Below are positions 16,612 through 16,720 of a stretch of 25,288 nt of DNA, piece by piece (within the stretch, counting starts at the first letter, position 1; each line of letters begins with the position of its first letter). The notes below the pieces were generated by a model. That model did not search any database, was not told the origin of the DNA, and saw only the letters and a list, made by a program, of their open reading frames with translations. Source of the DNA: a virus. Lineage: Duplodnaviria; Heunggongvirae; Uroviricota; Caudoviricetes. The stretch is from positions 1-25,288 of IMG/VR virus record IMGVR_UViG_2565956635_000009; one strand, given 5' to 3'. Made by a program: the position numbers and the translations under genes.

Positions 16612-16688
16612 TTACCTCTGAGGTAATTAAAAACCACATAAGACACGAAATCAATAGAGTTTAGAATATTTTGTTACCCATCAGGTAA
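16612..16688 (-). promoter_or_regulatory. Operator-promoter-operator module driving the accessory cluster
   Basis: Palindromes TTACCTCTGAGGTAA (16612..16626) and TTACCCATCAGGTAA (16674..16688), 62 bp apart, flank a minus-strand promoter (-35 TTGATT at 16654..16649, 17-bp spacer, -10 TTTAAT at 16631..16626). Spacing is identical to the early-left promoter module. Confidence 0.55.
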
Positions 16689-16700
16689 TTATCAAGGCGT

Positions 16701-16720
16701 AAAAAAATGCGCTATCGCGC
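16701..16720 (-). terminator. Putative intrinsic terminator after the P-like gene
   Basis: Minus-strand RNA: GCGC-GAUA-GCGC hairpin followed by AUUUUUUUA. The stem is short, so confidence is moderate. Confidence 0.4.

Follow-up and report, generated by a model that had tools for sequence, protein, structure and literature searches.

The DNA that we analysed, a stretch of 25,288 nucleotides (hereafter the window), is a phiV10-like prophage of the Uetakevirus group, the epsilon15-like podoviruses. Over positions 16200–20000, it shares 98% identity with Escherichia phage phiV10 and related phages (Uetakevirus). The repressor gene rep lies on the plus strand (19075–19659), with a strong terminator (19680–19699, +) and then the leftward early genes downstream of it. 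On the minus strand, the gene order starts with a cro-like gene (18690–18920), followed by a small gene, a DnaT/O-like gene (17508–18323), a lambda-P-like gene (16726–17526; Pfam Phage_lambda_P, E = 3e-56; TAA stop codon at 16728–16726), a cluster of seven nin-like genes, and finally terS, terL and the structural genes. Tandem repeats inside the DnaT/O-like gene (17887–18026; a 24-bp unit repeated 2.6 times with 100% identity, an 18-bp unit 3.1 times and a 12-bp unit 2.4 times) probably represent iterons of the origin of replication. An Rfam search gave a tRNA as its only match.

The nin-like cluster occupies the region between the P-like gene and terS (16608–13261, −), and the count of seven genes given in an earlier note on this DNA was right. 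The products are a DUF1064/Holliday-junction-resolvase-like protein, Eae-like and Ead/Ea22-like proteins, phrog_2821, DUF551, phrog_625 and, from the last gene, the phrog_536 'transcriptional regulator'. Neighbouring genes of the cluster abut or overlap, and a terminator scan found no strong terminator inside it. The phrog_536 regulator had no match in family searches of Pfam, NCBIfam and PDB; it is likely the late regulator.

The palindrome TTACC-N5-GGTAA is the putative operator motif of the repressor, Rep. It is present without mismatch at 16612–16626, 16674–16688, 19005–19019, 19717–19731 and 19779–19793. When up to one mismatch was allowed, the whole window contained 10 sites against 0.31 expected (0/100 shuffles), all of them within the ∼8% of the window that is non-coding. 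In an unbiased count of 5-N-5 palindromes, this motif was the commonest in the window, with seven exact copies, and the runner-up had three. Between the cro-like gene and rep, the OR region (18957–19019) carries operators at 18957–18971 (one mismatch, inside the PR spacer), 18988–19002 (two mismatches) and 19005–19019, and is the only operator group of the window with three clustered sites. Immediately past the cro-like gene there is a strong terminator (18668–18649; −15 kcal/mol) and then a variant site, TTACCCTTAAGGTGC (18620–18634), in which one half-site is altered to GGTGC, as in the middle OR site (18988–19002). The terminator and the variant site together (18620–18668) may form a tR1-like checkpoint ahead of the replication genes.

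Two pairs of exact operators are arranged as cassettes of 77 bp. Cassette A (19717–19793, +) is PL-like and lies between the terminator of rep and a gene starting at 19813; its hexamers are TTGACA (−35, at 19751) and AATTAT (−10). Cassette B (16688–16612, −) lies downstream of the P-like gene and faces the seven-gene cluster. The two share the layout operator, 19 bp, −35, 17 bp, −10, operator, with the operators 62 bp apart from start to start, and in both of them the −10 hexamer and the downstream operator share one T, the last of the former and the first of the latter. The earlier note had described the second module as a spacing-exact copy of the early-left promoter, and its figures were reproduced: all four operators are exact at the positions that it gave, the 62-bp spacing is found in both modules, the −35 hexamer begins 34 bp past the start of the upstream operator and precedes a 17-bp spacer in each, and the operators are identical at 13/15 positions in the upstream pair and likewise in the downstream pair. 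The two modules align without gaps, 47 of the 77 positions being identical (27/57 outside the half-sites).

In cassette B, the upstream operator, TTACCTGATGGGTAA (16674–16688, −), is centred at about −62 from the predicted transcription start. The −35 hexamer is TTGATT (16649–16654, −; 4/6 matches to the consensus) and the −10 hexamer is TTTAAT (16626–16631, −; 5/6 matches), with T instead of A at −11. The downstream operator, TTACCTCAGAGGTAA (16612–16626, −), covers the predicted start at ∼16619. A Shine–Dalgarno element, GAGG (16618–16615), is located inside this operator, 6 nt ahead of the ATG at 16608, and the predicted transcript would have an 11-nt leader that begins just 5' of GAGG. The arrangement is not the tripartite operator of the lambda type: two sites 62 bp apart bracket the promoter-like element. 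A spacing of 62 bp corresponds to ∼5.9 helical turns, which places both operators of cassette B on the same face of the DNA, and it is held at 61–63 bp in all lineages. Between the two operators, inspection by eye found no good match to an IHF site, and none is annotated there in epsilon15.

Between the P-like gene and cassette B is a hairpin followed by a run of seven T residues (16720–16701, −), 5 nt past the TAA stop codon. The hairpin, GCGC-GATA-GCGC (16720–16709), is separated from the T-run (16707–16701) by a single A. The phiV10 record labels it a putative terminator, and GCGC-N4-GCGC-R-T7 stands ahead of essentially all the B cassettes among the matches listed in our survey of relatives, despite their differing upstream genes. 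The stem of 4 bp with a 4-nt loop is below the five-pair minimum of the terminator scan, and the 40-nt fold has an energy of −8.4 kcal/mol (z = −1.9), compared to −15 to −21 kcal/mol (z < −5) for three other terminators of the region. It is thus, at most, a weak and marginal intrinsic terminator. The terminator that the earlier note had placed after the P-like gene therefore exists as a hairpin, with phiV10 annotation on its side, but not as a strong stop. The further statement, that the accessory genes are not a continuation of the rightward early transcript, went too far: as the hairpin is marginal, read-through from PR probably contributes to transcription of the cluster in addition to cassette B.

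Sigma-70 normally needs an A at position −11 of the −10 element. The hexamers of cassette B, TTGATT-17-TTTAAT, match the consensus at 9 of 12 positions and have T at −11. A consensus promoter scan listed cassette A (10/12) but not cassette B, because the −10 hexamer TTTAAT does not have this A; judged from its hexamers, the promoter of cassette B may be weak or in need of a helper. We also scored both strands of the window (∼50,500 positions) with a simple promoter weight matrix. The central promoter of cassette B scored 8.1 and ranked 28th. The best sites were those at 9601 (+), 10229 (+), 19751 (+; cassette A, rank 3) and 18974 (−; PR), all four of them operator-associated, and the same is true for five of the top six promoter-like sites of the window. 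Among 122 B-type cassettes, the median score of the central promoter was 8.1 and 93% of them scored at least 8. The version found in the epsilon15 lineage, TTGAAA-18-TAAATT, has both key bases of the −10 element. Generic promoter-like matches were not enriched in the region (7 versus 10 expected), so the case for a promoter in cassette B rests on its position and its conservation.

Two other promoter-like sites were considered at this locus. One of them, TTGATA-16-CAAAAT (16668–16695, −), has its −35 at 16695, and its spacer contains the upstream operator of cassette B, an arrangement also found in PR. In the window it ranked sixth by the weight matrix, above the central promoter of cassette B. 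As a conserved promoter it was rejected: its median score was 5.6, it reached 8 in only 27% of the cassettes, and its −35 falls in a hypervariable patch. In particular strains, it may act as an additional promoter. The other, an antisense site on the plus strand (AAGACA-16-TAGAAT at 16640), was discarded for lack of conservation in the epsilon15 lineage.

We scanned viral contigs for pairs of motif sites spaced by 62 bp and obtained at least 120 loci, the motif being required by the scan. The 164 cassettes among the matches listed form two families, A and B, that have one layout in common. The A family is PL-type, with TTGAC(A/T)-17-(A/G)AT(T/C)AT. The B family has TTGA(T/A)(T/A), a spacer of 17 or 18 bp and an AT-rich −10. 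In the B cassettes listed, the TTGA of the −35 is kept with one exception (TTGTAT), a start codon follows within a few bases, and the centre of the downstream operator is constrained to xAGRG; the operator centre xAGRGG thus supplies the ribosome-binding site. In a few lineages, a separate GGAGG ribosome-binding site follows the B cassette, and this argues that the cassette is not merely a ribosome-binding site. The genes around the B cassettes vary: P-like, DnaT-like or other genes are found upstream, and DUF1064 resolvase-like, RuvC-like or other genes downstream. Since the scan required the motif, a second test used loci that had been located only by their Rep protein. In the six prophages obtained (from Superficieibacter, Erwinia, Klebsiella, Scandinavium and two Citrobacter species), the operators of the B pair are 62, 62, 62, 62, 61 and 62 bp apart, and those of the A pair are 61–63 bp apart. 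Cassette B was present in all 32 Uetakevirus records of a phage collection and, among 5426 complete E. coli genomes, in 530 (∼10%); E. coli HB37 and E7 have it with 100% identity.

The same palindrome is found in epsilon15 (AY150271.2/NC_004775.2), in 15 copies against ∼0.7 expected. Seven dispersed sites are annotated there as protein_bind 'repressor', and they are scattered as in the window, lying ahead of terS, gp3 and the tail fibre gene, at PL and downstream of the replication genes. The operators of cassette B therefore share their motif with the OR and PL regions of the window itself and with epsilon15 sites that are annotated as repressor-binding. One of the annotated sites (35906–35922) is the direct homologue of window positions 16674–16688. 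A second operator (35969–35983), also 62 bp away, carries no annotation in that record, and no promoter or hairpin is marked there. The genes flanking cassette B in epsilon15 differ from those in the window, with a DnaT-like gene upstream and a RuvC-like resolvase gene downstream. Phage SPC32H has A and B cassettes with the 62-bp spacing, as in the window, and 18 copies of the palindrome against ∼0.7 expected.

We measured nucleotide diversity in 73 viral contigs that encode exactly the Rep of the window (100% identity). In cassette B, it was 0.001 over the 20 half-site positions, 0 in the −35 hexamer, 0.005 in the −10 hexamer and 0.026 in the 17-bp spacer; in the hairpin with its T-run it was also 0. 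Third codon positions of the genes flanking the cassette gave 0.03–0.05. The near-zero values at the half-sites and the promoter hexamers indicate that these positions are under constraint. On the other hand, diversity was 0.45 in the centre of the upstream operator and 0.21 in the 12 bp between the T-run and that operator, so that the operator centre and its upstream flank vary ∼10 times faster than synonymous sites. The same pattern was observed for cassette A.

Rep has 194 amino acids and two helix-turn-helix regions (Pfam HTH_3), and is presumed to bind all these operators. It matches the SPC32H Rep structure (PDB 5D50) over the full length (E = 4e-42; 42% identity), and it is also only 42% identical to the epsilon15 repressor. 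When Rep is aligned with its counterparts from epsilon15, SPC32H, BUCT554 and ZX5, the N-terminal helix NLVNRW is invariant and a linker of ∼20 residues is variable. SPC32H has a Rep–Ant switch (PDB 5D50/5D4Z), and the window encodes the Rep homologue with this invariant recognition helix; the ant gene region of the prophage is located beyond the window. Secondary sources describe SPC32H Rep as a tetramer on palindromic DNA with two pairs of DNA-binding domains, each such pair being formed across dimers, and an antirepressor that disassembles the tetramer (PMC9638917, PMC9986798). In the same account, the dimerisation domains are reported to be ∼100 Å apart. The ZX5 repressor is identical to that of the window, and its overexpression lowered endolysin transcripts by 99.99% and holin transcripts by 99.97% (PMC9782041). 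All the full-length Rep homologues found (42–100% identity) have the same recognition helix and the same motif, and none of them represents a heteroimmune relative in which operator and repressor had changed together. Among the loci found through Rep, the motif was present in the six prophages having (N/T)LVNRW and absent from five distant homologues with other helices; for these five DNA-binding-domain homologues, a replacement palindrome was sought and not found. These comparisons give only weak evidence for co-variation of repressor and operator. A text search of the literature for the operator sequence returned nothing relevant.

Taken together, the conserved operator-flanked element, its operators of the OR/PL type and the invariant Rep helix make a separately repressible unit starting at ∼16619 (−) the best reading of the locus. 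The separately repressed accessory unit proposed in the earlier note is thus supported, in so far as a conserved promoter-like element lies between the same operators as those of OR and PL. We consider it likely, from sequence comparisons, that cassette B is a Rep-repressed early sigma-70 promoter for the seven-gene nin-like cluster. In a lysogen, Rep would keep cassette B off. Rep on the downstream operator would cover the edge of the −10 element, the +1 position and the ribosome-binding site, and would thereby block RNA polymerase. The upstream operator, 62 bp off on the same face of the helix, would stabilise this binding cooperatively, plausibly with one Rep tetramer on both sites. Such bridging across 62 bp is extrapolated from a homologue of 42% identity; it is conceivable in view of the ∼20-residue linker and the ∼100 Å separation of the dimerisation domains in that homologue. 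Upon inactivation of Rep, which is brought about by an antirepressor in SPC32H, transcription would start at ∼16619 (−), run through the seven nin-like genes (16608–13261) and stop at a terminator at 13211–13194. The weak hairpin upstream would trim read-through from PR without abolishing it. Cassette B would in this way give the cluster a direct, repressor-gated supply of transcripts that is independent of reading through the replication genes.

The features that leave the promoter in some doubt are also those on which its strongest competitor is built. The operators could be real Rep sites around hexamers that do not make a working promoter, cassette B being an extra anchor for Rep, either as a roadblock on the way of PR or as a partner for bridging to OR/OL 2.3–3.1 kb away, with the accessory genes transcribed from PR only. 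A −10 element without the −11 A, which the promoter scan did not call, is what such an anchor might have. The hairpin is too weak to stop the transcripts from PR, and the Rep homologue that has been studied is tetrameric. However, a pure anchor needs neither hexamers nor PL-like offsets, whereas TTGA and an AT-rich −10 keep their offsets in nearly all the B cassettes listed from six genera and do not vary in the population sample. Moreover, PR is itself repressed in the lysogen and would leave little for a roadblock to block. We regard this explanation as improbable.

A Rep-repressed promoter that RNA polymerase uses unaided has also to be weighed against one that needs a phage activator, either a PerC-like or AlpA-like product of the leftward operon or the cro-like protein. 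Transcription of the cluster would then be delayed-early, and the Rep sites would serve as a safety lock only. The sub-consensus −10 element would fit with this. So would the 17-bp spacer with its TRTGG, which is nearly invariant, as if it were bound by something else; its diversity of 0.026 is lower than a plain promoter explains. In addition, the phiV10 record annotates putative activators in the PL operon. On the other side, no recognisable activator site was found, and both key −10 bases are present in the TTGAAA-18-TAAATT of the epsilon15 lineage. This alternative appears quite improbable to us.

The variation of both upstream and downstream genes around a conserved cassette could suggest that cassette B is kept mainly as a recombination joint, a linker for the swapping of replication and nin-like modules, with regulation being secondary. 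A joint leaves unexplained the base-level selection on half-sites and hexamers next to a free operator centre, and it is compatible with a Rep-repressed promoter rather than an alternative to it; as the main reason for conservation we hold it to be very improbable. Chance resemblance is practically excluded by the motif enrichment and the conservation.

The hypervariable patches (16679–16683, 16689–16700, 19705–19716 and 19722–19726) adjoin the invariant half-sites of the upstream operators in both cassettes, with a diversity of 0.21–0.45 compared to 0.006–0.05 at third codon positions. The 12-bp flank of cassette B also forms the −35 of the optional second promoter described above. Gene conversion between operator copies was considered as a source of this variation and was rejected: the upstream operators of A and B share 11 centres, where 9.4 ± 2.4 were expected from position-specific composition (P = 0.31). 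As a speculation, to which we give a small chance, the 62-bp cassette may work as a portable clamp, with a single Rep tetramer holding an early promoter from both sides, and the hypervariable patches may be under diversifying selection that tunes the strength of repression or lets phages escape repression by a homoimmune resident prophage. The hypervariable operator centre and flank are the most interesting loose end of this analysis.

The packaging genes do not belong to the unit of cassette B, to which the earlier note had assigned them. The cluster ends at 13261 and is followed on the same strand by a strong terminator (13211–13194; −16.2 kcal/mol) and by a separate pair of operators at terS (13142–13174, −), 18 bp apart and abutting the terS start codon. 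The pair is also found in epsilon15 (12–44), and its spacing is 18–20 bp in the five of the Rep-found prophage loci that reach terS. By this arrangement, the packaging genes are a separate and separately guarded unit. The phrog_536 regulator gene shares its stop codon with a perfect 12-bp palindrome, GTGACATGTCAC (13253–13264), that is conserved in epsilon15. Downstream of the palindrome come promoter-like hexamers, the strong terminator and the two operators that abut the terS ATG at 13142. The layout of 13142–13272 (−), with a regulator gene, promoter-like hexamers, a terminator and then terS, is similar to Q-PR'-tR' of lambda.

The comparison with lambda extends to the early region. As in the window, the divergent early promoters PL and PR of lambda lie around the repressor gene, and the O/P-like genes precede a nin cluster that includes a junction resolvase. 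Next come a late regulator (likely phrog_536 in the window), a terminator and the packaging genes. In lambda, however, it is N antitermination through tR2–tR4 that gives access to the nin genes and Q, and no repressor-controlled promoter like the one proposed for cassette B is known there. Lambda operators are tripartite, with adjacent 17-mers, whereas those of the window include pairs bracketing a promoter. Silencing of several dispersed units by one repressor is known from the C1 operators of P1 and the gp71 sites of mycobacteriophage L5; those sites are asymmetric and mostly single, whereas the sites of the window are palindromes and often occur as pairs of fixed geometry. Two in-phase operators that bracket a promoter and are bound by a tetrameric repressor are known from gal OE/OI, lac O1/O3, deo and nag. 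The repressors of these systems are unrelated to Rep and their operator distances are longer than 62 bp; looping in the window is a proposal.

Cassette B is an ordinary kind of phage control element, and it reveals no new kind of mechanism. Neither is the idea new for this phage group, as the epsilon15 annotation already has dispersed Rep sites, including one in cassette B. The possibly new part is modest: a second operator, a promoter placed between both operators, the exact repetition of the PL geometry and its conservation across genera. The analysis provides a regulatory map for a type of prophage found in about one-tenth of the complete E. coli genomes. On this map, every transcription unit of the window begins with putative Rep sites, and the nin-like cluster would have its own repressor-gated promoter where lambda uses antitermination. 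The map helps to predict which prophage genes are silent in lysogens, and the cassette offers a compact, naturally duplicated system for studying a tetrameric repressor on two sites 62 bp apart.

Operators also occur at other promoter-like sites of the window. The top promoter-like site of the window, TTGACA-17-TACCTT at 9601 (+), has an exact operator (9623–9637) over its −10 and +1 positions. Downstream of it are ∼330 nt without assigned function and then a tRNA-Arg(TCT) gene (9960–10036); the whole segment (9601–10036, +) is on the strand opposite to the structural genes. At the equivalent place, epsilon15 has an annotated RNase III site and a repressor site. Further on (10195–11077, +), a terminator-like hairpin, GCCCGG-ttcg-CCGGGC with a run of seven T residues, precedes an operator with one mismatch (10240–10254). 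This operator lies within the spacer of ATGACC-17-TATAAT, directly 5' of a 271-aa ORF (10262–11077), which had no family match and gave weak coiled-coil-like matches only. Finally, an unrelated-looking viral contig (L096, positions ∼300–440) carries four copies of TTACC-N5-GGTAA clustered around a TTGACA promoter, and operators of this type may thus be used outside the epsilon15-like group as well.
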